DNA of 50,943 nucleotides from IMG/VR virus record IMGVR_UViG_3300029309_000066, positions 1 to 50,943 of that record; one strand, given 5' to 3'. The position numbers and the translations under genes were made by a program. Shown here piece after piece: positions 4,433 through 34,304 of the stretch. The notes under the pieces were generated by a model that saw only the letters and a program-made list of their open reading frames with translations, did not search any database and was not told the DNA's origin. Source of the DNA: a virus. Taxonomy: Duplodnaviria; Caudoviricetes. Positions within the stretch are counted from its first letter, which is position 1. Every line of letters begins with the position of its first letter.

Positions 4433-4627
4433 TTACATCTCCTTGTCTATTTGTTTTAATGTCTCGTCTATAATCTCACAAGATTGTTCTAAACCTTCTG
4501 CGATGCCGACGTTTTTTTGATATTGAGTGTGGTCGGTCATGCGACCTTCTACCATATCACTCGCTATCTGTAGTTTCCTCTCCCTCAGTTTCTTCGTTAT
4601 CTGCTTCAATAGGTCTATTTGGCTCAT
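4433..4627 (-). CDS. Hypothetical protein
   Basis: 64 aa helical ORF directly upstream of groES. Confidence 0.7.
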   Translation of the reverse strand: MSQIDLLKQITKKLRERKLQIASDMVEGRMTDHTQYQKNVGIAEGLEQSCEIIDETLKQIDKEM

Positions 4628-4700
4628 CTGTTCTTAACTCCCCCGTTCCAGTGATAGAAACTCCTGTTACATTAATAAAAACATCTTTCCTATTTTCCAT
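4557..4700 (-). CDS. Small acidic hypothetical protein (47 aa, not in ORF track)
   Basis: Manual translation MENRKDVFINVTGVSITGTGELRTDEPNRPIEADNEETEGEETTDSE. Confidence 0.45.
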   Translation of the reverse strand: MENRKDVFINVTGVSITGTGELRTDEPNRPIEADNEETEGEETTDSE

Positions 4701-4706
4701 ATGCCT

Positions 4707-4847
4707 TTACCCTTTATTTTTCTTCATTGGTTTTTTCTTCATTGTTTTTTTCTTCATTGGCTTTTTCATGGTCTTTTTTTTGCCTTTAGAATGATACACT
4801 GTTTTCCCTCCTTTTAAAAGTTTTGAAAATTTGGCTCTATTAAGCAT
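4707..4847 (-). CDS. Small Lys/Met-rich basic protein (alternative GTG start at 4799)
   Basis: Manual translation ...YHSKGKKKTMKKPMKKKTMKKKPMKKNKG; GGAGG before the GTG. Confidence 0.6.
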   Translation of the reverse strand: MLNRAKFSKLLKGGKTVYHSKGKKKTMKKPMKKKTMKKKPMKKNKG

Positions 4848-4906
4848 ATATGCATGTTATCACAAATGTAAAGTAAATAAAGTAATAAAAAAAAACCTTT
4901 TATGTG

Positions 4907-4974
4907 TTGATTTTTGAGCTAATGGTATTATATTAGTAACTATAGATTTTATATTTATAAAAATGGGAGAAAGA
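4907..4974 (+). promoter_or_regulatory. Early-type sigma70 promoter plus conserved leader TGGGAGAAAGA
   Basis: TTGATT-16-TATATT; leader motif at 4964-4974. Confidence 0.65.
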
Positions 4975-4976
4975 AT

Positions 4977-5096
4977 ATGAAAATCAAAAGAGATAAAACA
5001 CACTCAACATCAAGAGGTTGGGAGAAAGCTTACAAAAAAAGAGGTAAGAAAAAGCAAAGACAATTAGATAAGAAACTTACTAAGGGAGGTTATTAA
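4977..5096 (+). CDS. Small basic hypothetical protein (39 aa)
   Basis: MKIKRDKTHSTSRGWEKAYKKRGKKKQRQLDKKLTKGGY after the conserved leader; TAATG-coupled to the next gene. Confidence 0.65.
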   Translation: MKIKRDKTHSTSRGWEKAYKKRGKKKQRQLDKKLTKGGY

Positions 5097-5347
5097 TGAG
5101 AACAGACCAATTATCAAATCACGACAAAGAATTGATGGATAGTTTTTTTGAGAACGAAGACCAAATACTTGAGATGCAAGAAAAGGCAAAACCATCAATG
5201 ACAGAAATTGAAGCTATTAACCATATTATATCGGTTATAGATGAAAGAGGCTTAGATAAATGTACTGATAAGACACAAGATGCTTATAAAGTTCTTACAG
5301 AATTATCTGAGAAATTATCAACAGATTTTGTTTTATATAGACCATAA
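5096..5347 (+). CDS. Hypothetical protein
   Basis: GGAGG RBS, coupled start. Confidence 0.75.
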   Translation: MRTDQLSNHDKELMDSFFENEDQILEMQEKAKPSMTEIEAINHIISVIDERGLDKCTDKTQDAYKVLTELSEKLSTDFVLYRP

Positions 5348-5357
5348 GGAGGAAAAA

Positions 5358-5744
5358 ATGAAACAGTTAATTAGAAATATTAAATTCGGCTTTGAGAACC
5401 AATATTTTCATAGAATTATTGGTTACAATCAACAAAACGAAAAATTTAAATTTATTGATTATGGTTTTACAACAAGAATAGAATGCCTTGGTAAACACAA
5501 AGTTTTAAGAGGTAAATATTCTACATTTGCAATACCTTTTGATGATGATATTGCGAAATGGGAAACATCTTTTGATAATGTTGATGATGCATTACAAAGA
5601 TTACTTGAAATCGTAGATGGTAATTTAAAAGATTTTTCAGTTGTTTATTCTGAAAGAGAATTTGAAACCAAATCAATAACTTTAGAAAAATTATCTACAT
5701 TATCATTAAATCAAATAAGACAATTAGAAATGGAGGTGGCATAA
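5358..5744 (+). CDS. Hypothetical protein
   Basis: AGGAGG RBS supports start at 5358 (MKQLIRN) rather than 5280. Confidence 0.75.
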   Translation: MKQLIRNIKFGFENQYFHRIIGYNQQNEKFKFIDYGFTTRIECLGKHKVLRGKYSTFAIPFDDDIAKWETSFDNVDDALQRLLEIVDGNLKDFSVVYSEREFETKSITLEKLSTLSLNQIRQLEMEVA

Positions 5745-5974
5745 TGAAAGATAAAATTACCAAATCTGAGGCAAAGAAACTCTGTGATACACAGGGTTTC
5801 ACCTTTGAAATGTTAAGCCAAATGTTTGATATTACTAGAGAACCTAGAAAATATACATTTACTGTTGAAAATGAAAGACAGTATGCAATCAAGGTTTTAA
5901 ATGTAATATCTAACCTTAATCAGAAACAGAGAGAAAGGGTATTGCAAAGAGCATTAAAAACTAATAAAATATAA
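5744..5974 (+). CDS. Hypothetical protein
   Basis: GGAGG RBS, TAATG coupling. Confidence 0.75.
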   Translation: MKDKITKSEAKKLCDTQGFTFEMLSQMFDITREPRKYTFTVENERQYAIKVLNVISNLNQKQRERVLQRALKTNKI

Positions 5975-8359: not shown

Positions 8360-9084
8360 CTAAATGGTGCTCCTAAAACCCAACAAACCAAAGAATGTCT
8401 TTTACCTTTCGTTACAGGTGTAACTTGATGATACCAAAAAGATGGAAAAACAACTATTGAGCCTTGTGGTCTTATTTCTTTACATTCATAAAGTCTGTTA
8501 CTGTGTTGGTGGTCTCCCCAATCAAATTTTAGGTTACCACCTTCATAATCTTCTGGTTTACTTAAATTCATAGTTAAACTTAATTTTCTAATCTTTCCTA
8601 CCAAATCATCATTAGTGGTATAATATTTTTCTTTACCTTTTATTTTTTTTTCATCTGGTACATTTTTTAAATAAGCAGATTTATGACAACCGCCACAATC
8701 TCTATGCCAACCATAGAAGCCACCATTTTGATATGTTGTAAATTGTAAATCTTCTGCACTTTCAAAATCATAGTTCCAACCAGCCTTTTCATTTGCCTCT
8801 ACAACAAAAGGATATATTCTATTGTATATCCAAACATCATTTAGCCAAGATATAGAACTATCACGAACCAATGGGTTTATTTCATCAATATTTTTTCCTA
8901 GTTCTTTTTGTAATTGTTGTGTGGTTTTATCTGCTTGTTGAATTTGTTTATTGGCACCTTTATGTTCTAAATTCATAGTTTCTGCTTCTTCTGGCTCTTT
9001 ACTTAAACCTAAACTAATAATTTTATCACATTCATCACTTGTTAAAGCAGATGGGAATACGTAAAATGGTGTTTCAATATACAT
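8356..9084 (-). CDS. 2OG-Fe(II) oxygenase (PKHD/prolyl-hydroxylase-like)
   Basis: WHRD, RKLS, YEGG.L.F, FPSF..HQV.PV.KG.R.SLV.W. Confidence 0.9.
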   Translation of the reverse strand: MYIETPFYVFPSALTSDECDKIISLGLSKEPEEAETMNLEHKGANKQIQQADKTTQQLQKELGKNIDEINPLVRDSSISWLNDVWIYNRIYPFVVEANEKAGWNYDFESAEDLQFTTYQNGGFYGWHRDCGGCHKSAYLKNVPDEKKIKGKEKYYTTNDDLVGKIRKLSLTMNLSKPEDYEGGNLKFDWGDHQHSNRLYECKEIRPQGSIVVFPSFWYHQVTPVTKGKRHSLVCWVLGAPFR

Positions 9085-26460: not shown

Positions 26461-27240
26461 ATGAAGAAAGAAGAACGAAGAATGAAAAGTAACAATCCAT
26501 TTAATAATCATAATTTATTTTGGTTATCACATAGTTCAATTTCCACTTGGATTCAAAGTCCATCTAAATTTATTGCAGAAAAACTATTTAATATAAAAGG
26601 TGAAAGTTCTGCATCTATGCATAGAGGTACTGCAGTAGAACATGGTCTTGCAAAAAAATACACAGATGGAATTTTAGATATATTTGAAATAGAAAATAAA
26701 TTTACAGAATTGTGTAACTTTGATGGGATTGATTGGGAAAATGAAAAAAGACAAAAAGAACATAAAGAATTAAAAAGTTATGCACAAATATTAGAAAGAA
26801 ATTTTAAATACGAAACATTATTAGGTTATCAAGAAAAGATTGAAGTTCAATTTGATGAACTGCCAATACCTATAATTGGATATATAGATTTTATATTTGA
26901 TGGTATAATTGTTGATTTAAAAACATCTGCAAGATTGCCTTCTAAGGCATCAGAATCAAATAAAAGACAATTAGCAATATATAAAATGGCTTACCCAACA
27001 CATGAGACAGAGGTGTTTTATGCAACACCACAGAAATGTAATGCCTTTAAATTAGAAAATTTAGAAATTTACCAAAAGCAAATAAAAGAAGTTGCCTTAG
27101 GTATGATGAAATTTTTGAGTATCAGTAATGATAAACAAGAATTAGCTTCTATGGTTCTGCCAGATGCAGACGATTGGAAGTGGTCAGAAAATACGATAAA
27201 TGAAGTAAAACAAAAAGTTCAAGCATGGAGGTACTTATGA
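26461..27240 (+). CDS. PD-(D/E)xK exonuclease (start possibly 26482)
   Basis: LS.SS, RGTAVE, GYIDF, VDLKT, Q..IY. Confidence 0.85.
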   Translation: MKKEERRMKSNNPFNNHNLFWLSHSSISTWIQSPSKFIAEKLFNIKGESSASMHRGTAVEHGLAKKYTDGILDIFEIENKFTELCNFDGIDWENEKRQKEHKELKSYAQILERNFKYETLLGYQEKIEVQFDELPIPIIGYIDFIFDGIIVDLKTSARLPSKASESNKRQLAIYKMAYPTHETEVFYATPQKCNAFKLENLEIYQKQIKEVALGMMKFLSISNDKQELASMVLPDADDWKWSENTINEVKQKVQAWRYL

Positions 27241-27800
27241 AGAACGAAGAAAAAAAACTGGCAAAAGACCAGACGATTATTGAAGAAATTGTAGATGCAT
27301 CTGTATCTATAAAACAAGATAATCAATTCCCTAAAACACTTGTTGAAGCATTAAATAAGTTTCAAAAGTTAAATGTACAAGCATTGAAAGATAAGAATAA
27401 TCCTTATTTTAAATCAACATATGCAGATTTAACTTCTATTATAAATGCTGTAAATCAAGCATCACAATTTGGTTTGGCATTTTCGCAAATAGTAGATTAT
27501 TCAAGACATATAATTGATAAACAAAGAAAAGATATTGCAAAAGATGGCACCAATTCAATAACAAATGTTCAAGCAATAGAAAGAGATATTTATGTTGAAA
27601 CAATTATTTGGCACATTGATGATAAAGACAATACATTAAGTTGTAGAGTACCAGTATTGGTAAAAGATAATGATAATGACCCACAAAAAATGGGTTCAGC
27701 CATAACATATGCAAAAAGATATGGTCTACAAGCCTTATATGGTTTGGGACAAGATGATGATGGAAACCAAGCAAGTGGAAAGGGAGATAAAAATGGATAA
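27237..27800 (+). CDS. erf: ERF-family single-strand annealing protein
   Basis: NPYFKSTYADL, Q.MGSAITYAKRY.L, DDDGN. Confidence 0.92.
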   Translation: MKNEEKKLAKDQTIIEEIVDASVSIKQDNQFPKTLVEALNKFQKLNVQALKDKNNPYFKSTYADLTSIINAVNQASQFGLAFSQIVDYSRHIIDKQRKDIAKDGTNSITNVQAIERDIYVETIIWHIDDKDNTLSCRVPVLVKDNDNDPQKMGSAITYAKRYGLQALYGLGQDDDGNQASGKGDKNG

Positions 27801-28236
27801 CATAAAGAAATATGATAACACCAATAGTGGTGTTCTTTATACAATACCAAAAGACCCAAACAATGAACCAGAATGGAAATTAATCCAACAAGGTAAATTA
27901 AACATTGATGGGAACGATATGCGAATTGTTGGTATAAAAAGACTAAATAAAGATGGAAAAGAAATGGTTGGCATATTTAGAGAAATTGGCACGATTAAAG
28001 AAAATGCCAATAAGGTAAATGATAAAGAGCCAGATGCAAAGGGTGTTGTAAATAATATTATTGATAATGGTGGTTTTACAATTTCTGCATGGAAAGAAAT
28101 ATCGGAAAGAAAAAATGCCTATGTAAGTTTAAAAGTAAGGGCATTTCAAGAAGATAATTCAAGAAAGGTAGAAGATAAACAAGACAACAATAATCAAGAT
28201 AACGACATTAAAATTGATGACGATATACCATTTTAA
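27793..28236 (+). CDS. Putative single-stranded DNA-binding protein
   Basis: YDNTNSG, acidic tail ending DDDIPF; follows erf. Confidence 0.7.
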   Translation: MDNIKKYDNTNSGVLYTIPKDPNNEPEWKLIQQGKLNIDGNDMRIVGIKRLNKDGKEMVGIFREIGTIKENANKVNDKEPDAKGVVNNIIDNGGFTISAWKEISERKNAYVSLKVRAFQEDNSRKVEDKQDNNNQDNDIKIDDDIPF

Positions 28237-28245
28237 AGGGAGAAA

Positions 28246-28560
28246 ATGATGCAAATAAAAGATTTAATATTATCTGAAGTAAAATCACACCCAATAAGCC
28301 AAAGGTCAGATGCACCAACTGGTTCTGAAAATCTTACACAACATGAAAATGTTAAAAGATATTTAGAAAGCATGAATATGATAACACCATATTATGCTTT
28401 AAATGTTTATGGTGCATTTAGACTAAGTGCAATTATTTATGAATTGCGAAAAGAGGGTTTAGATATTATTACTGAAATGGTAACGAGTAAAGGTAAGTCA
28501 TTTGCCTGTTATATGTTAAAGGCAAGGTATGATGAACTTAAAACACAAACCGATACGTAA
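28246..28560 (+). CDS. Winged HTH protein
   Basis: ITP..AL..YG.FRLSAII..LR..G..I.T. Confidence 0.75.
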   Translation: MMQIKDLILSEVKSHPISQRSDAPTGSENLTQHENVKRYLESMNMITPYYALNVYGAFRLSAIIYELRKEGLDIITEMVTSKGKSFACYMLKARYDELKTQTDT

Positions 28561-28987
28561 TAAAAACTTTATGATTTTTGTAGCGAACAGAGAATGTTCG
28601 TTACATAATCATTCAACTTATCGTTGCAGTGGTGGTGTTCAAGCACATCATTTATTAAAACCATGGGACGGATATAGGGGAATGGGTTTAAAAGCAGGCG
28701 ATAATAATTGTATTCCTCTGTGCCAAAGACATCATGCACATTTACATGATAAACATGGTAACGAAGATACATTTTGGCAATTATTTAAGTTGCCAGAGGA
28801 TTATGGTCGTATCGTATCACAATCTTTGTGGTATTCATTTAAACTAGGAGTATCTATGGAAGAAAAAATAAGTAAATTCAAGGACTTAATAACTGAAATT
28901 GACATATCAAAATACAAACAAAAAGAATATGTAGTTATTGTAAATGCTATTTATAAAAGTATTTTTGGAGACAAATATGGAAACTGA
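28529..28987 (+). CDS. DUF968/HNH-like putative nuclease
   Basis: C...C, AHH, GMGLK..D...IPLC..HH. Confidence 0.75.
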   Translation: MMNLKHKPIRNKNFMIFVANRECSLHNHSTYRCSGGVQAHHLLKPWDGYRGMGLKAGDNNCIPLCQRHHAHLHDKHGNEDTFWQLFKLPEDYGRIVSQSLWYSFKLGVSMEEKISKFKDLITEIDISKYKQKEYVVIVNAIYKSIFGDKYGN

Positions 28988-29312
28988 AAAAATTACTGAA
29001 GAAGAAGTACAAAAAGCAGTAGATTATTTACGAGACAGTTCTACTGAATGTGCAAAGGCAAGAGCAGAATTAATTTATGTTACTGAATATAGAAAATCTT
29101 TAAAAGCAATCTTAATGAAAAAACATGGAGAACTGGCATATTCTGGTCAAGAGAGAGAAGCATATGCTGAACAAGAATATAAAAAACATTTAGATGCAAT
29201 TAAAGAAGCAACCTTTACTTATGAACGATTAAAATTTTTAAGAGAATCAGCAAAAGCCAAAATAGATGCTTGGCAAACAATGTCTGCAAATATTAGAGCT
29301 ATCAAGGTATAA
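28977..29312 (+). CDS. Conserved coiled-coil phage protein
   Basis: GGAG RBS; RKS.KA.LM, QEREAYA, W.T..AN.R. Confidence 0.75.
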   Translation: METEKITEEEVQKAVDYLRDSSTECAKARAELIYVTEYRKSLKAILMKKHGELAYSGQEREAYAEQEYKKHLDAIKEATFTYERLKFLRESAKAKIDAWQTMSANIRAIKV

Positions 29313-29440
29313 AGAGGCTACCAGTCTTTCTTCTATACCTATGTATGATTAAACAAAAAATAATTTTTACAGAGGTTCTAACTCTAGTAATCGTTTAAAA
29401 TGTCAAGAAAAAAAAGTTTTTATAATTATAAAATTTATGA

Positions 29441-29499
29441 TTGACATAATAGCTACTGATATTACCTTAAAACTATCATTAATTTTATTGGGAGAAAGA
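29441..29499 (+). promoter_or_regulatory. Early-type promoter plus conserved leader
   Basis: TTGACA-16-TACCTT; TGGGAGAAAGA at 29489-29499. Confidence 0.65.
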
Positions 29500-29501
29500 A
29501 A

Positions 29502-29690
29502 ATGATAATAGAACTTTACGAAGATGTAAAAAAACTAGAAGAAATAAAATCTGTATGTTTTGGTTATTCACGAAGTACAATCCAATCACATATCCAAGAT
29601 TTGATAAATGAAAAAAATAAACAAATCGCAAAAATTCAAGATGAACACAACAGACGTTCATTAGAAGATTTATTAGGGAGGAAAATATAA
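29502..29690 (+). CDS. Hypothetical protein
   Basis: Follows the conserved leader. Confidence 0.75.
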   Translation: MIIELYEDVKKLEEIKSVCFGYSRSTIQSHIQDLINEKNKQIAKIQDEHNRRSLEDLLGRKI

Positions 29691-29917
29691 TGGGTGGTCA
29701 AGCATTTAAAAATCATATGGAAAAAAAGATGGATAAAGAAATAGAAAATACAATTAAAAATATTTCACATCACGAAGAAGTAGAGAAAAAGGCAAAATCA
29801 TTATATACAAAATGGTACGAAAGAAATCTTTTACCTTTTGATTATGCAGATTTAGATGATTTTGTAGAATATTTTACAGACCTATATATTAAACATTGGG
29901 AGGGTTCACATGAATAG
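29690..29917 (+). CDS. Hypothetical protein
   Basis: GGAGG RBS, coupled. Confidence 0.75.
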   Translation: MGGQAFKNHMEKKMDKEIENTIKNISHHEEVEKKAKSLYTKWYERNLLPFDYADLDDFVEYFTDLYIKHWEGSHE

Positions 29918-31184
29918 ACCAATTTTATGTTCAGAAATCCTATCTGCATTAACACAACCAAAAAGAGCATTAGCCCTCTATCAAGGAGGGCGAATTGCAG
30001 ATTCAAAGATAAGACAAAAACAATTTGAATTTGTTGATGCAAAGAAATTTGTAATTTCAGACAACATGATAGAAAATGCTTGGGATATTTCACTTTCAAA
30101 GCCATCTGTAATATTAGAATTACTTGATTATGCCAGAGTTCCATTTGAAAATGTTTGGTTTGAATGGAATGAAAATCTAAGACAAGAGATAATGCAGAAT
30201 TATGCAAAAAAACATGGCAAAGAAATAGATGATACAAGACCTAGCAGATATCCACAGAGGGTTGGTTATCATATTAAAAAATTTAAAAATCGTTTAGATG
30301 AAGATTATTATTTATACGAAAACTGGTGGTTTACTGGTGAAAATGTAGTAAATCAAGAAAAATGGTCATCATCTGAATTACCAAATAAATATTTTACACC
30401 TACAATGTGTTTTACATTAGAAGATACAGACCCAAATTGGGAAGATGCCATTGCACGAATTCAGTTATTAGATGAAATGCCAGAACAAGGTAGACCCACA
30501 ACACCAATGGACATGATGATACAATCGTTCTGTGTAGGTACACAATTATTAGGTAGAAATTACTCTTATAAATATATACCTAGAAAATTTTTATTAACTC
30601 TTGAAGAAAAACAAAAATTAGGCAATCAAAAAGGTTATTTAAAATTTTTAGAAAAGGTAATTAAATACGAAGGTAATCACGAATTTAATTGTTTCAAACA
30701 AATTTGTTACAGATTGAGTTTGGCACAAAGTTCATCAATGCATTGGTCTATACCAGAATGGAAGTTCAAAGAGGGATATACTATGAAAGAAATACAAGAC
30801 CATGAATCTACTGCATTGGTTTCTATGGAGGGCGATACAAGATTTATGATTAGTTTATTATCTTTAATAAATCAAAATCTACATGAACAAGAGTTTGTAG
30901 AACCTAATTCTAAAATTGTTCATACTGTTCTTGGTAAAAGAGTTCCTAGAAATTCTTATTATGTATTAAATGTTATTGTGCCAAAATCTGGTATCAGAAA
31001 AATATATAAAACTACATTTACTGGCAAGGGTAATCCTAAAAGAGAGCATGAAAGACGAGGTCATATGAGGCACCTGCGAGATAAAGATGGTAATGTGTAT
31101 AAAAAGATATGGATTAAAGATATGGTCGTTGGTAACGCAGAACTAGGGAAAGTAACCAAAGATTACAATTTTAAATCTGAATAA
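29910..31184 (+). CDS. Hypothetical protein with a C-terminal H-x-RRGH-x-R motif
   Basis: 424 aa; REHERRGHMR...WIK...VGN..LG. Confidence 0.75.
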   Translation: MNRPILCSEILSALTQPKRALALYQGGRIADSKIRQKQFEFVDAKKFVISDNMIENAWDISLSKPSVILELLDYARVPFENVWFEWNENLRQEIMQNYAKKHGKEIDDTRPSRYPQRVGYHIKKFKNRLDEDYYLYENWWFTGENVVNQEKWSSSELPNKYFTPTMCFTLEDTDPNWEDAIARIQLLDEMPEQGRPTTPMDMMIQSFCVGTQLLGRNYSYKYIPRKFLLTLEEKQKLGNQKGYLKFLEKVIKYEGNHEFNCFKQICYRLSLAQSSSMHWSIPEWKFKEGYTMKEIQDHESTALVSMEGDTRFMISLLSLINQNLHEQEFVEPNSKIVHTVLGKRVPRNSYYVLNVIVPKSGIRKIYKTTFTGKGNPKREHERRGHMRHLRDKDGNVYKKIWIKDMVVGNAELGKVTKDYNFKSE

Positions 31185-31216
31185 TGTATAAATGTAAAAA
31201 AAATACCTTTTTAGTG

Positions 31217-31274
31217 TTGAATATTTACAAATATAAATTATATATATACTATAATCAATTTTATGGGAGAAAGA
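31217..31274 (+). promoter_or_regulatory. Early-type promoter plus conserved leader
   Basis: TTGAAT-16-TATATA; TGGGAGAAAGA at 31264-31274. Confidence 0.6.
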
Positions 31275-31276
31275 TT

Positions 31277-31633
31277 ATGAACAAAAAAATCTTAAAATAT
31301 ATTGAAGAATATAAAGGTTATTCTTTAACAGATTGGGAAAAAGAATATTATTCTAAACATTACCCAACAATAGAGAAGTTTGAAAAAGATATGATATATC
31401 AATCAATATCAGATATTTCAAAAGAATTACATGGTTCACGATATAGACTTGATATTGATGAATATTCAATAGAAGAATTGCAATCAATCTTAGATGAGTT
31501 CATTCAAGAAATAAAAAATGAAAATCAAAGAAGAGCAGATAAAGAGGCTGAGAATTTTGTTAAAAATAAATTATTGGCAAAAAGTATCGGTGTTTCTATT
31601 GAAGACTTACACAGATGGGAAGTGGCATGGTAG
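31277..31633 (+). CDS. Hypothetical protein
   Basis: Start MNKKILKY after the conserved leader. Confidence 0.75.
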   Translation: MNKKILKYIEEYKGYSLTDWEKEYYSKHYPTIEKFEKDMIYQSISDISKELHGSRYRLDIDEYSIEELQSILDEFIQEIKNENQRRADKEAENFVKNKLLAKSIGVSIEDLHRWEVAW

Positions 31634-31709
31634 CCACCTCCCCCTATAACCCAACGGAGGAATGTAAGGTTATTCCTCCTTGTATCATAAAATAAAAAAG
31701 GAGACAATT

Positions 31710-32612
31710 ATGTTAGATACTAAATTTTTTAAAGACGAGATGGCAAAGGTAGATTTTCCAATATCTATTTTGCCAATAAATGATATTCCATTAGAGATGG
31801 GACAGAAATTGGTAAGAACCGATACATCTGAACCTTTGGGTATTGTTAAATCAAAATATAAGCCAATTCTACATAAAGATTGTTTTGGTGGTGCAATCGA
31901 GCAAATGAAGATTGCAGGAGTATCTTTTAAAGATGCTGAAATGAATATTCAATCTTATGAAAATGGTGCAATGGCAAAGATGGAGTTATTATTACCAGAC
32001 CATAATACTACTATTGGTAAACATAATTTATCTTTAAAATATGTTGCCAGAAATTCATATAATGGTAGATGGAAATTTCAAGCTTTCTTTGGTTGGTTAA
32101 ATCATGTTTGTTTTAATACATTGGTTACTGGTCAAAAATTGGCATATACATCAAATAGACATACTAAATCTTTTGATATTGAGTCATCTAATAAAAAGAT
32201 TACAAATGCTATTAAGGCAGTTACAGATGAAACTGAAAGATTTAAAAATTGGTGGGATATACCAGTAGAAGATGAACAGGTAAAAAACCTGTTTCAATCT
32301 ACTATTGCCAAGCAAAAACTATCTAAAGGTTCTAAAATGGCAGGTATTAATGAAACCAATAAAAAGCAATTATCTATTTTAATGGGATTATACGACCAAG
32401 AGGTAGCACAATTACATGGTCAAGGTGATTATGGTAGGGCTGATGCTAAAGGCTCTCTATGGTGTGCATATCAATCTGCAACTGCATGGTCTACACATCT
32501 TGCAGATATACAAAGAGACGATACAAAAAAATATCTTGTAGAAATAGATAGACAAACTTTGGTTTCAGATATGGTCAATTCTGATAATTGGAAAGAATTA
32601 GAAGATGCTTAG
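31710..32612 (+). CDS. DUF932/DUF945-like protein
   Basis: LVRTDT..PLG.V...Y, NSYNG, VC.N.L, H..S, SLW..Y...T.W.TH. Confidence 0.75.
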   Translation: MLDTKFFKDEMAKVDFPISILPINDIPLEMGQKLVRTDTSEPLGIVKSKYKPILHKDCFGGAIEQMKIAGVSFKDAEMNIQSYENGAMAKMELLLPDHNTTIGKHNLSLKYVARNSYNGRWKFQAFFGWLNHVCFNTLVTGQKLAYTSNRHTKSFDIESSNKKITNAIKAVTDETERFKNWWDIPVEDEQVKNLFQSTIAKQKLSKGSKMAGINETNKKQLSILMGLYDQEVAQLHGQGDYGRADAKGSLWCAYQSATAWSTHLADIQRDDTKKYLVEIDRQTLVSDMVNSDNWKELEDA

Positions 32613-32622
32613 GGAGGGAAAA

Positions 32623-32925
32623 ATGAAACTATTATATCTTTTAATTATATTGGGGTTAACTGCTTGTAGCAGTTCCCCAAAAAATAAAGTTGCAGAGGTA
32701 AAACTTGGCACGGTAATACCAAAAAATATGTCCTCAGATGGTGTAGCAAAATTGATGCATGATAGGCAAATATTTCAGATGACAAGACAAGAAGTTATTA
32801 CTGCCATTCAAGATTGCCATTCTGCTGATTTAAGGGCTGTATTATATCATGGTAGGGTACAAGTAACTGGTCGTTATATACCTATTGTGGTTCAAGTACA
32901 ATGTGCAGTTAAGATAACGAGATAA
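32623..32925 (+). CDS. Putative lipoprotein
   Basis: MKLLYLLIILGLTAC|SSS signal peptide with lipobox. Confidence 0.75.
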   Translation: MKLLYLLIILGLTACSSSPKNKVAEVKLGTVIPKNMSSDGVAKLMHDRQIFQMTRQEVITAIQDCHSADLRAVLYHGRVQVTGRYIPIVVQVQCAVKITR

Positions 32926-32928
32926 AGG

Positions 32929-32980
32929 GGTTGGGGAGTATTATGAATCTTCGGCGAAATTTTTGGAGTACTCCCCAACC
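32929..32980. other. Strong GC-rich hairpin
   Basis: Perfect 12-bp stem GGTTGGGGAGTA/TACTCCCCAACC with a 28-nt interior. Confidence 0.7.
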
Positions 32981-33008
32981 AGATGCAACTTTATTATACA
33001 TTAATTGG

Positions 33009-33061
33009 TTGATATTACTACTAATTTATATAAAATGTTACTAACTTTTATGGGAGAAAGA
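33009..33061 (+). promoter_or_regulatory. Early-type promoter plus conserved leader
   Basis: TTGATA-16-TAAAAT; TGGGAGAAAGA at 33051-33061. Confidence 0.7.
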
Positions 33062-33063
33062 TT

Positions 33064-33234
33064 ATGAAGAACGAAAATTTAATAGATACAAATAAATATA
33101 TTAAACTAAAATATCCAGATGGCGATGTAGAATTTTGGACATGTGACAGTCCGATTTCAGAATTAAAAAGACTTCAGAAATTACACAATAACAAAATTGA
33201 AATAGAATATATTGAGGTAAGGGTAACAAAATGA
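33064..33234 (+). CDS. Hypothetical protein (56 aa, not in ORF track)
   Basis: MKNENLIDTNKYIKLKYPDG...; ATGA coupling to the next gene. Confidence 0.7.
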   Translation: MKNENLIDTNKYIKLKYPDGDVEFWTCDSPISELKRLQKLHNNKIEIEYIEVRVTK

Positions 33235-33458
33235 ATATTTATGAACACGATAAAGAAACCTTACAATACATTGACCATTACTCAGTAACTGAATTGGTTG
33301 ATAGAGGTCAATATGAAAAGACTAAATTTTTTAATATTAAAGATGCAATCAAATTTAGAGATGCTGTATTAAATAAAAATAAATTGGCACGCATTGCAAT
33401 ATATGCAGTTTGCACACCACCTGCCAGACCAGTTGTAAACTTGATAATGGAGGTTTAA
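33231..33458 (+). CDS. Hypothetical protein
   Basis: GAGG RBS, coupled. Confidence 0.75.
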   Translation: MNIYEHDKETLQYIDHYSVTELVDRGQYEKTKFFNIKDAIKFRDAVLNKNKLARIAIYAVCTPPARPVVNLIMEV

Positions 33459-33623
33459 ATGGATAATAGGTATTATGTAAAGATACGTTTATACGAAGAT
33501 TTACCAGATATGCCACATAGTGGTAAATATTTAGAATTTATGATAGAGGCAAAATCTGAGCAAGATGTTCGTATGATGGTTTCAGATAGACATAAAATAA
33601 CATTAATCACATTAGTTGATTAA
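33459..33623 (+). CDS. Hypothetical protein (54 aa, not in ORF track)
   Basis: GGAGG RBS; MDNRYYVKIRLYEDLPDMPHSGKYLEF... Confidence 0.7.
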   Translation: MDNRYYVKIRLYEDLPDMPHSGKYLEFMIEAKSEQDVRMMVSDRHKITLITLVD

Positions 33624-33664
33624 TAGAAAAGGTTTGGCATAGAATATATTATCTGTTAGAAATA

Positions 33665-33830
33665 TTATAAGATGTAATTTTAACCATACCTATATTAATG
33701 ATTTAAATTATATCTTGTAAAGATGGAATTGGGCTTCGCAAGAAAAGTAGCCTCTTGGCTCTCTTTCTCCCACCCCCACCTTAAATTGGTATGTGAAGGG
33801 CGAGGATAAGCATACCACCGATTAATTTTT
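33665..33830 (+). ncRNA. Candidate small regulatory RNA antisense to the early-gene leaders
   Basis: Three hairpins flanking a pyrimidine-rich tract containing TCTTTCTCCCA; possible promoter TTGGCA-17-TAGAAA at 33634-33662. Confidence 0.45.
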
Positions 33831-34304
33831 ATTTGTCTTCCATAGAAAAAATATAAGAACAAAAAAACCAATTATTGTAATTGTTAAACCTATTATGGCA
33901 ATAACATTAATTATCTTATCTCTTTGTTCTTGTTTTTTATGAACAAATTCTGCTCGTTCTTTTCGTATCTTACCTTCTAAGGCTAACAATTCGTTCCAAC
34001 CAGATGGACCATACGACATCATAATTATATTTTTTAAATCTTGCCTATGTTTTTGCATTTTTTTCTTGGCAATCAAACTATCAACTGCAACTTTTTCTAT
34101 ATTCTCACTATTAAACATAGATTGCCAAAATGTAGGGTTCTTGGCTCGTTTCTCTAAATGTTCAATATCACTACTATTTTGCATAAAAGTAGAAACTTGA
34201 TTTGTCATTTCAGATATATCTTTGCCTAATGCAATACCTTGTTTAAGATAATCAACACATTTGGTAGCACCTGCCAATAATATGCCAATAGTTGCAGGTT
34301 CCAT
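33822..34304 (-). CDS. Membrane-anchored hypothetical protein
   Basis: Coiled coil plus C-terminal TM helix. Confidence 0.8.
   Translation of the reverse strand: MEPATIGILLAGATKCVDYLKQGIALGKDISEMTNQVSTFMQNSSDIEHLEKRAKNPTFWQSMFNSENIEKVAVDSLIAKKKMQKHRQDLKNIIMMSYGPSGWNELLALEGKIRKERAEFVHKKQEQRDKIINVIAIIGLTITIIGFFVLIFFLWKTNKN

Follow-up and report, generated by a model that had tools for sequence, protein, structure and literature searches.

We found that the gap between two convergent genes of a tailed-phage genome carries a conserved structured RNA, one segment of which is the exact complement of a ribosome-binding leader shared by plus-strand genes, and this RNA probably silences all leader-tagged early genes by pairing with their ribosome-binding sites. 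As judged from the comparison of relatives, the idea of an anti-leader RNA is well supported. The window, by which we mean the whole stretch of DNA analysed, is a complete IMG/VR virus record of 50,943 bp (CheckV 100%, GC ~32%). The minus strand holds most of its genes, including those for the primase/helicase, the large terminase, the portal and the tail, and on the plus strand there are a gene block (26461-33623) and a small island (4964-5974). The products of the block and the island include an exonuclease, an Erf-like annealing protein, an SSB, an HNH protein, a DUF932 protein and many small proteins of unknown function; we infer, and only infer, that these are the early genes. No lysogeny genes were seen among the scanned proteins of the window, and ARAGORN found no tRNA or tmRNA genes in it.

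The closest isolates of the window are the Roseobacter phages CRP-901 and CRP-902 (TerL 74% identical), the genus of which has a GC content of 40-49% and shares a family with the pelagiphages HTVC023P and HTVC027P, according to the paper on these phages (PMC10149686). The words "non-coding" and "promoter" are absent from that paper. In CRP-902 itself, neither the gap, nor the RNA, nor the leader was found. The gap of the window spans 33624-33821, with the final plus-strand gene stopping at 33623 and a minus-strand gene (33822-34304) stopping at 33822, and a blastn search of 33400-34000 against phage records gave no match. A 97%-identical copy of the region is found on a metagenomic contig of 138,904 bp (L114; relatives are referred to here by L numbers), which is nearly 3 times the length of the phage genome and could have arisen by concatenation, misassembly or integration.

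The first-pass annotation had pointed to an identical 11-mer before four plus-strand genes and to its exact reverse complement in the non-coding gap, and both observations hold. The 11-mer TGGGAGAAAGA matches the window exactly on the plus strand at 4964, 29489, 31264 and 33051, and in inverted orientation at 33762-33772. Five matches compare with 0.04 expected, and none of 100 shuffles reached at least five, so chance is excluded as the origin of the five copies. Each of the four plus-strand copies is followed by 2 nt and then ATG, and each ends a sizeable plus-strand intergenic gap, of which the window has few. The four leader copies are as follows:

4964-4974, plus strand: leader copy 1, ATG at 4977, opening gene of the small plus-strand island, 39-aa basic peptide
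29489-29499, plus strand: leader copy 2, ATG at 29502, 62-aa protein (MIIEL...)
31264-31274, plus strand: leader copy 3, ATG at 31277, 118-aa protein
33051-33061, plus strand: leader copy 4, ATG at 33064, 56-aa protein, in an operon that ends 105 nt upstream of the RNA

Promoter-like hexamers precede two of the three leader copies inside the scanned range, TTTACA-17-TACTAT (31224-31252) before copy 3 and TTGATA-16-TAAAAT (33009-33036) before copy 4. A GGGAG Shine-Dalgarno sequence was found in 5 of the 15 crudely called plus-strand genes, and also at the genes starting at 4977 and 31277, as against 1 of the 54 minus-strand genes, while AGGA was found in 21 of those 54. The Shine-Dalgarno type thus appears to split by strand, with (U)GGGAG before plus-strand genes and (A)AGGAG before the structural and replication genes of the minus strand. 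Several other features were observed around the leaders. The 39-aa peptide (4977-5096, plus strand) is very basic and rich in K and R, and its gene contains a near-copy of the leader motif, TGGGAGAAAG, at 5019-5028, with no start codon after it. A GC-rich hairpin, GGTTGGGGAGTACT ... AGTACTCCCCAACC (32929-32981, plus strand), lies just 5' of leader copy 4 (33051) and its promoter-like site; it probably terminates the plus-strand operon before it, but is absent from the listing of the terminator scan.

The inverted copy lies within a conserved structured RNA, the parts of which are as follows:

33729-33818, plus strand: conserved structured RNA, core element of ~90 nt (covariance model R1, 69.6 bits, E 3e-12 in the window)
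33730-33733, plus strand: 5' strand of helix P1, UGGG, paired with 33775-33778 in the constrained MFE structure
33734-33739, plus strand: pseudoknot strand J, CUUCGC, paired with 33800-33805 (GCGAGG)
33741-33768, plus strand: hairpin P2, AGAAAAG / CUCUUUCU, from the MFE structure
33762-33772, plus strand: anti-leader core UCUUUCUCCCA, exact complement of the early leader
33775-33778, plus strand: 3' strand of P1, CCCA of the second C run, from the constrained MFE structure and the model alignment
33787-33817, plus strand: hairpin P3, UGGUAUGU / GCAUACCA, with a 15-nt loop that contains the pseudoknot 3' strand 33800-33805

Relatives were fetched via the neighbouring 657-aa protein, yielding 47 viral and 80 metagenomic loci in which this anchor protein is 27-39% identical, save for the near-identical twins L008 and L114. 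The R1 covariance model matched 16 of 125 distinct sources (E <= 1.3e-6), representing 14 distinct sequences and six sequence types: window/L114; L019/L164; L014; the L016 group (L016, L050, L069, L080, L159 and L161); L026/L193; and L032. These R1 matches were obtained although the flanking 657-aa protein is only 31-39% identical. The RNA was also recovered by nhmmer, with E values down to 1e-25, including in relatives with 31-36% identity in that protein. All 16 sources are low-GC relatives, and the GC content is 29-34% in every RNA-bearing viral locus. In most other relatives the convergent genes overlap and leave no gap; a miss in a metagenomic locus is not proof of absence, since many of these loci are short. 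Weak R1 matches in L126 (E 0.019-0.068) and in L029 (E 0.45) were not included in this set.

Searches beyond the anchored loci added little to this set. An exact-core pattern retrieved 59 stretches from IMG/VR, and only L069 and L080 were judged to be new real instances; several of the remaining stretches had already been fetched via the protein anchor, and the rest had no flanking features. The same pattern retrieved 52 stretches from GTDB genomes, none of which was matched by the covariance model, giving no pointer to a host. No Rfam 15 family reached its gathering score in the window, and nothing relevant was found at E <= 10 in 33600-33860, where the Rfam C4 family (which we take to be RF01695) did not match either. 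The sole Rfam match near the gap, RF04347, was rejected as chance level (E 3.9, opposite strand, 33601-33629). Divergent cousins of the RNA occupy the same genomic position in L009 (8400-8497), L124 (9879-9975; the same as L119) and L118 (9931-10027). These keep P1, the pseudoknot and P3 but have a different middle domain, with AUCCUC in a hairpin loop in L124 and L118, and no multi-copy complementary leader was seen in L009, L118 or L119/L124. One complementary leader, CACUAGAGGA-N7-ATG, was observed in L119/L124, on the other strand.

The fold of the RNA is supported by covariation across these lineages, and the covariation score of the whole four-helix structure on the model alignment was reached by none of 500 shuffles. 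The pseudoknot helix was predicted unprompted by RNAalifold on the model alignment, with compensatory changes at 6 of its 6 pairs and 90.5% of cells paired. Across ten lineages 54 of 60 cells are paired, a value reached by none of 20000 partner shuffles, and the helix takes the forms CUUCGC/GCGAGG, CUCCG/CGGAG, UCGCCU/AGGCGA, CUCUAU/AUAGAG, CUCAUC/GAUGAG, UUCAG/CUGAA, UCAGC/GCUGA and CAGU/ACUG. P1 is paired in 92.9% of cells on the model alignment and changes from G-C to U-A in L026/L193; its two compensatory variants are UGGU/ACCA in L026 and UAGG/CCUA in L032. Drawing P1 to the first C run instead was slightly worse (89.3% of cells paired and no double changes, versus 92.9% and one) and was not retained. 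P2 is paired in 88% of cells, with no pair changed on both sides, and a hairpin AGCC-UCUU-GGCU is inserted at its tip (~33749-33760) only in the window, L008 and L114.

For P3, RNAalifold on eight MAFFT-aligned lineages, after four misaligned rows (the L016 group and L014) had been dropped, gave 7 pairs, 6 of them with compensatory changes, and 75 of 80 cells were paired in a separate count of our own; in the model alignment, where its columns are out of register, 61.5% are paired. The relatives conserve a P3 loop of 13-17 nt. A U-rich tail follows P3 at 33822-33835 in the window, and a U-rich run that begins 2-8 nt past the stem is present in most lineages. The TGGTATG/CATACCA hairpin with U-rich tail of the first-pass annotation is this P3 (33787-33817), and it is present in the plus-strand MFE structure. 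By contrast, the GCAA-capped hairpin that had been placed at 33732-33752 is neither in the MFE structure nor conserved, and its CUUCGC is the pseudoknot strand. Of the antisense RNA that had been proposed, the core is upheld by comparison, but a compact pseudoknotted fold replaces the pyrimidine tract between three simple hairpins. The helices contain six G.U/U.G wobble pairs in the plus sense and no A.C, and since these pairs fit the plus sense only, the RNA would be read in the direction of the early genes. Taken as a whole, the gap shows no unusual folding stability (z -1.36 for the plus and -1.82 for the minus strand). A C-rich linker, CCCCAC(C) (33773-33780), is almost invariant in the relatives; no conserved complementary partner of it was found, and its pairing with the leader of the 160-aa gene on the convergent strand (GGTGGG...) is confined to the window and L114.

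The anti-leader segment of each lineage was taken as the 3' strand of P2 together with the P2 loop and the internal loop, and the leader and RNA sequences were found to change together as follows:

Window, L008 and L114: leader UGGGAGAAAGA, RNA core UCUUUCUCCCA, 3-4 sites
L019 and L164: leader (U)UGGGAGAAAACAAAUG, RNA core CAUUUGUUUUCUCCCA(A), runs of 16-17 nt
L014 and the L016 group: leader UGGGAGAAAACA(AU), RNA core (AU)UGUUUUCUCCCA, 1-5 sites of at least 11 nt
L026 and L193: leader GUGGGAGAAAA, matching RNA core, two leaders only, 11 and 9 nt
L032: leader (UU)GCACAGGAG, RNA core CUCCUGUGCAA, 5 sites

L019, L164, L014 and the L016 group have in common the leaders UGGGAGAAAACA(A) and the RNA (U)UGUUUUCUCCCA. 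The L019/L016 type departs from the window type at two leader positions (G to A and A to C), with matching changes in the RNA. In L032, where GCACAGGAG pairs with CUCCUGUGC in the core, the complementary stretch lies upstream of GGAG, whereas in the window it lies downstream of GGAG. The complementary runs are 12-17 nt in the relatives, reaching AUG in L019 and L164 and 17 nt in L019; the paired sequences of L019 and of the L016 group are UGGGAGAAAACAA(AUG) with (CAU)UUGUUUUCUCCCA. Orthologues of the MIIEL... protein (window 29502) carry their own lineage's version of the leader in L019, L164 and L114. Because there are only three sequence states, the co-variation of leader and RNA represents few independent events.

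The first-pass annotation had suggested that leader and seed should co-vary in related genomes, and they do so both in these three leader/anti-leader pairs and in their co-occurrence over the 127 protein-anchored loci. An early-sense GGGAGAAA-N1-8-ATG occurs at least once in 15 of the 16 loci that carry the GGGAGAAA-type RNA versus 2 of the 106 loci without the RNA, and the one RNA locus without a leader, L025, is a shorter fetch of the L026 phage. Same-strand sites of at least 11 nt followed by ATG number 1-5 per locus and were found in 15 of 15 RNA-bearing loci. The genomes carry 4-9 leaders in separate transcription units, and the inverted copy is always single and always within the RNA (16 of 16 loci). 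No relative without the antisense element was found to have at least two such leaders. Overall, the comparison shows a match between RNA and leader that appears to be under selection and that would cover the ribosome-binding site and sometimes the start codon. Predicted energies did not separate the leaders from other gene starts in either duplexfold or cofold calculations: the cofold ddG of the four leaders was -6.2 to -9.9 kcal/mol, and some unrelated gene starts pair better, via the C-rich linker, reaching -15.6 kcal/mol.

These data lead us to propose the following mechanism. An RNA of ~90-100 nt would be made from the plus strand, either from its own promoter or as the 3' end of the last early operon, and would fold into a short closing helix (P1), a hairpin (P2) and a 3' hairpin (P3) with U-rich tail, and the P1-P2 junction would pair with the P3 loop in a pseudoknot of 5-6 bp. 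The complement of the Shine-Dalgarno leader, which stands before the opening gene of every early unit, lies in the 3' strand of P2 and in the unpaired nucleotides that flank it. In the constrained MFE structure of the window, the anti-leader core covers 33762-33768, which is the P2 3' strand, and continues for 4 nt into the unpaired internal loop (33769-33774). Accessibility of the seed, on which the first-pass annotation depended, is predicted to be partial: 7 of its 11 bases are paired in the plus-strand MFE structure, and in the constrained MFE structures 4-6 nt are unpaired and 6-7 nt lie in P2, with the P2 loop free as well in L019 and the L016 group. Pairing would therefore start on the unpaired nucleotides, and the leader would then displace the P2 5' strand to form a duplex of 11-17 bp over the ribosome-binding site. 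Such a duplex would block initiation and would probably destabilise the mRNA, acting on all tagged early genes jointly, and late genes would escape repression through their use of AAGGAG-type sites. The tagged genes would most likely be repressed jointly at translation, since antisense RNAs that occlude ribosome-binding sites are known to act in this way, and the RNA would probably control all leader-bearing early genes at once. We infer its transcription, action in trans, repression and timing from the features described above; delayed negative feedback is plausible, given that synthesis of the RNA would accompany the early transcripts or follow shortly after them, and the RNA could take part in an early-to-late switch.

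An unlikely alternative, though the one that survives best, is that the RNA pairs with the leaders without shutting off early genes, either by protecting or activating the mRNA (for example, by covering an RNase site), or by acting in cis only as the 3' UTR of the 33051 operon, or by targeting host ribosome-binding sites of the UGGGAG type with the phage leaders as a sponge. The same complementarity and co-variation apply to it, the RNA follows a leader-tagged operon of the same strand at a distance of 105 nt, and the conserved C-rich linker has no conserved phage target. The region upstream of the RNA contains two features:

33634-33639 / 33657-33662, plus strand: weak promoter-like TTGGCA-17-TAGAAA, read from the sequence
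33666-33719, plus strand: AU-rich hairpin, in the plus-strand MFE structure, lineage-specific

The hexamers of the promoter-like site, which had been put forward as a possible promoter of the RNA, are indeed present, but the promoter scan did not list them (its 44 promoter-like sites in the window compare with 46.7 expected, with no excess), and they are found in the closest lineage only. The version in L114 is TTGGCA-17-TAAAAA, and L001 and L008 have a gene in their place. The window's own lineage has no convincing conserved promoter, and the lack of an independent one would suit this alternative. However, the L016 group and L014 have an apparent dedicated promoter, TTGCAA-16-TA(G/A)AAT, that ends 15 nt before P1 even though the spacer sequence differs. 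A purely cis role fails for most copies because the 4-9 leaders stand in separate units. A duplex over the Shine-Dalgarno sequence, which in L019 would cover the AUG too, also speaks against this alternative; with RNAs that occlude ribosome-binding sites, a duplex on the Shine-Dalgarno sequence or AUG normally prevents initiation.

The AU-rich hairpin, correctly noted in the first reading of the gap, is retained in L114 with G.U pairs at other positions, is replaced by a different hairpin in L001 and is absent from L019, where the RNA abuts the upstream gene. It may contribute to a processing site of the RNA or to a longer precursor. In the twin L001 (96% identical) a 160-aa gene replaces 33623-33686 and 33728-33813 is unchanged. 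This extra gene (4506-4988, locus minus strand) encodes a protein of unknown function, and the window has 64 nt in its place. In addition, an identical 21-mer was observed just 5' of the RNA in the window (33699-33725) and L026 (~8891-8911), where the flanking protein is 31% identical; this shared 21-mer, which includes the 3' arm of the AU-rich hairpin, may be a precursor or processing-site part.

It is quite unlikely that the element is no more than a structured transcript end, a terminator or 3' stabiliser of the convergent operons, with the leader match a relic of an inverted leader duplication. Such a role would fit the position at a convergent junction, the U-rich tail after P3 and, in the window's lineage, the AGCC-UCUU-GGCU hairpin between A-rich and U-rich runs, which resembles a bidirectional terminator. 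Yet the terminator scan lists no site in 33624-33821, the AGCC/GGCU hairpin is an insertion limited to that lineage, and the tail begins 2-8 nt past P3, so that an intrinsic (bidirectional) terminator was rejected. Most relatives, moreover, handle the same junction with overlapping genes and no gap, and continued tracking of the leaders, in lineages with proteins that are 31-36% identical, would not be seen with a relic.

We regard it as very unlikely that the shared motif is an asymmetric operator acting at the DNA level in either orientation, the structured RNA being an unrelated 3' end or terminator that contains one such site by chance. The motif does lie just 3' of promoter-like hexamers at two of the three scanned leaders, and a DNA site is indifferent to orientation. 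Against this, the inverted copy is single and inside the RNA in 16 of 16 loci, it extends into the start codon in L019, both of its halves are strands or loops of covarying RNA helices, and its sequence tracks the leaders exactly, even with the shift to a position upstream of GGAG in L032.

Finally, function of the minus strand, as a fifth ribosome-binding leader for a small ORF or as a decayed gene start, is highly improbable: a minus-strand copy is followed by ATG and a frame of 13 or 19 codons in L019 and L026, but there is no start codon in the window or the L016 group (in the window no ATG, GTG or TTG within ~15 nt, as the first reading had already noted), the mini-frames are not conserved in other lineages, all six wobble pairs become A.C mismatches on that strand, and the 36-aa GTG frame at 33708-33818 has no ribosome-binding site. 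The minus-strand ORF was rejected on this evidence, as was the bidirectional terminator on that given above. The mirror-image leader with ATG, seen on the strand opposite to the RNA at ~8749 in L019 and ~8855 in L026 (both on the locus plus strand), arises because the complementarity of the RNA extends into the start codon.

Joint repression of the tagged early genes by the RNA, our preferred reading, has its closest analogues in the c4 antisense RNAs of phages P1 and P7 and the CI antisense RNA of P4. A 2025 review of phage sRNAs presents c4 as the relevant precedent (PMC12197685). According to that review and to what is generally held of these systems, c4 and CI are likewise phage-encoded structured small RNAs, exposed segments of which pair at the ribosome-binding region of the phage's own leader transcripts and block expression, and in P1/P7 heteroimmunity the c4 RNA and its target co-vary between related phages (PMC12197685, in part). 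In contrast, c4 and CI are immunity factors that serve one operon of a temperate phage and are processed from the transcript of that operon, whereas the RNA of the window would target 4-9 early units, has a fold with a junction/loop pseudoknot and stands at the 3' end of the early block; the Rfam scans revealed no sequence or structure match between them.

Two other systems offer partial likenesses. RsaE/RoxS of Firmicutes are C-rich sRNAs (UCCC motif) that pair with the Shine-Dalgarno sequences of many mRNAs, so that there too one sRNA with a C-rich anti-Shine-Dalgarno motif represses a regulon at its ribosome-binding sites. However, these are cellular RNAs with short, redundant C-rich loops and targets that share only a generic Shine-Dalgarno sequence; the present RNA has no Rfam match and would read an extended "address" of 11-17 nt on the early genes of one phage. 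In phage T4, RegB cuts GGAG in the Shine-Dalgarno sites of early genes and RegA is a translational repressor of early mRNAs, so that a phage factor recognises early ribosome-binding sites and shuts off early translation as a class. RegB and RegA are proteins, whereas here the recogniser would be a base-pairing RNA. We class the element, on the comparative evidence, as a putative phage antisense RNA on ribosome-binding sites with a new fold and with a gene set instead of one locus as its target.

Our literature search found no description of this element, nor of any RNA matched to a shared early leader. A catalogue of 8,495 candidate structured RNAs (PMC10690425), likewise drawn from IMG/VR and likewise based on covariation in intergenic regions of phages, may include the motif; in its main text, as distinct from the alignments of its supplement, "Shine-Dalgarno" and "ribosome binding" have 0 occurrences each.

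Simple antisense action requires neither the C-rich linker nor the pseudoknot. Both suggest a further function, possibly a structural switch or one that involves a host factor. Together they might form a switch or a platform for a host factor such as Rho, although Rho binding by the linker is speculation. A tentative and rather doubtful extension is that the system is a programmable RNA "address" system, in which every early unit carries the same tag, one pseudoknotted RNA reads it, and the RNA also silences a co-infecting relative with the same tag. The tag/anti-tag pairs AAAGA, AAAACAA and GCACAGGAG differ by lineage and may be non-cross-reacting; the RNA could therefore silence the early genes of a same-tag co-infecting relative. 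If true, this would amount to RNA-based exclusion or heteroimmunity among lytic marine phages.

To our knowledge, few phage sRNAs are known that act on the phage's own genes (c4, CI, sar and OOP), each at a single locus and in temperate enteric phages. In the present case, comparison by itself indicates a single RNA that matches the shared leader of 4-9 early units, in abundant uncultured marine relatives of CRP-901-type roseophages and HTVC023P-type pelagiphages. If the proposed action is correct, the RNA would be a counterpart of the protein-based shutoff of early translation by RegA and RegB in T4, and the RNA and its leaders would be a rare case of trans-pairing partners that are visibly co-evolving in metagenomes. 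The system is small, consisting of a 90-nt RNA and a target of 11-17 nt with natural orthogonal variants, and is thus a possible source of orthogonal translational repressors.
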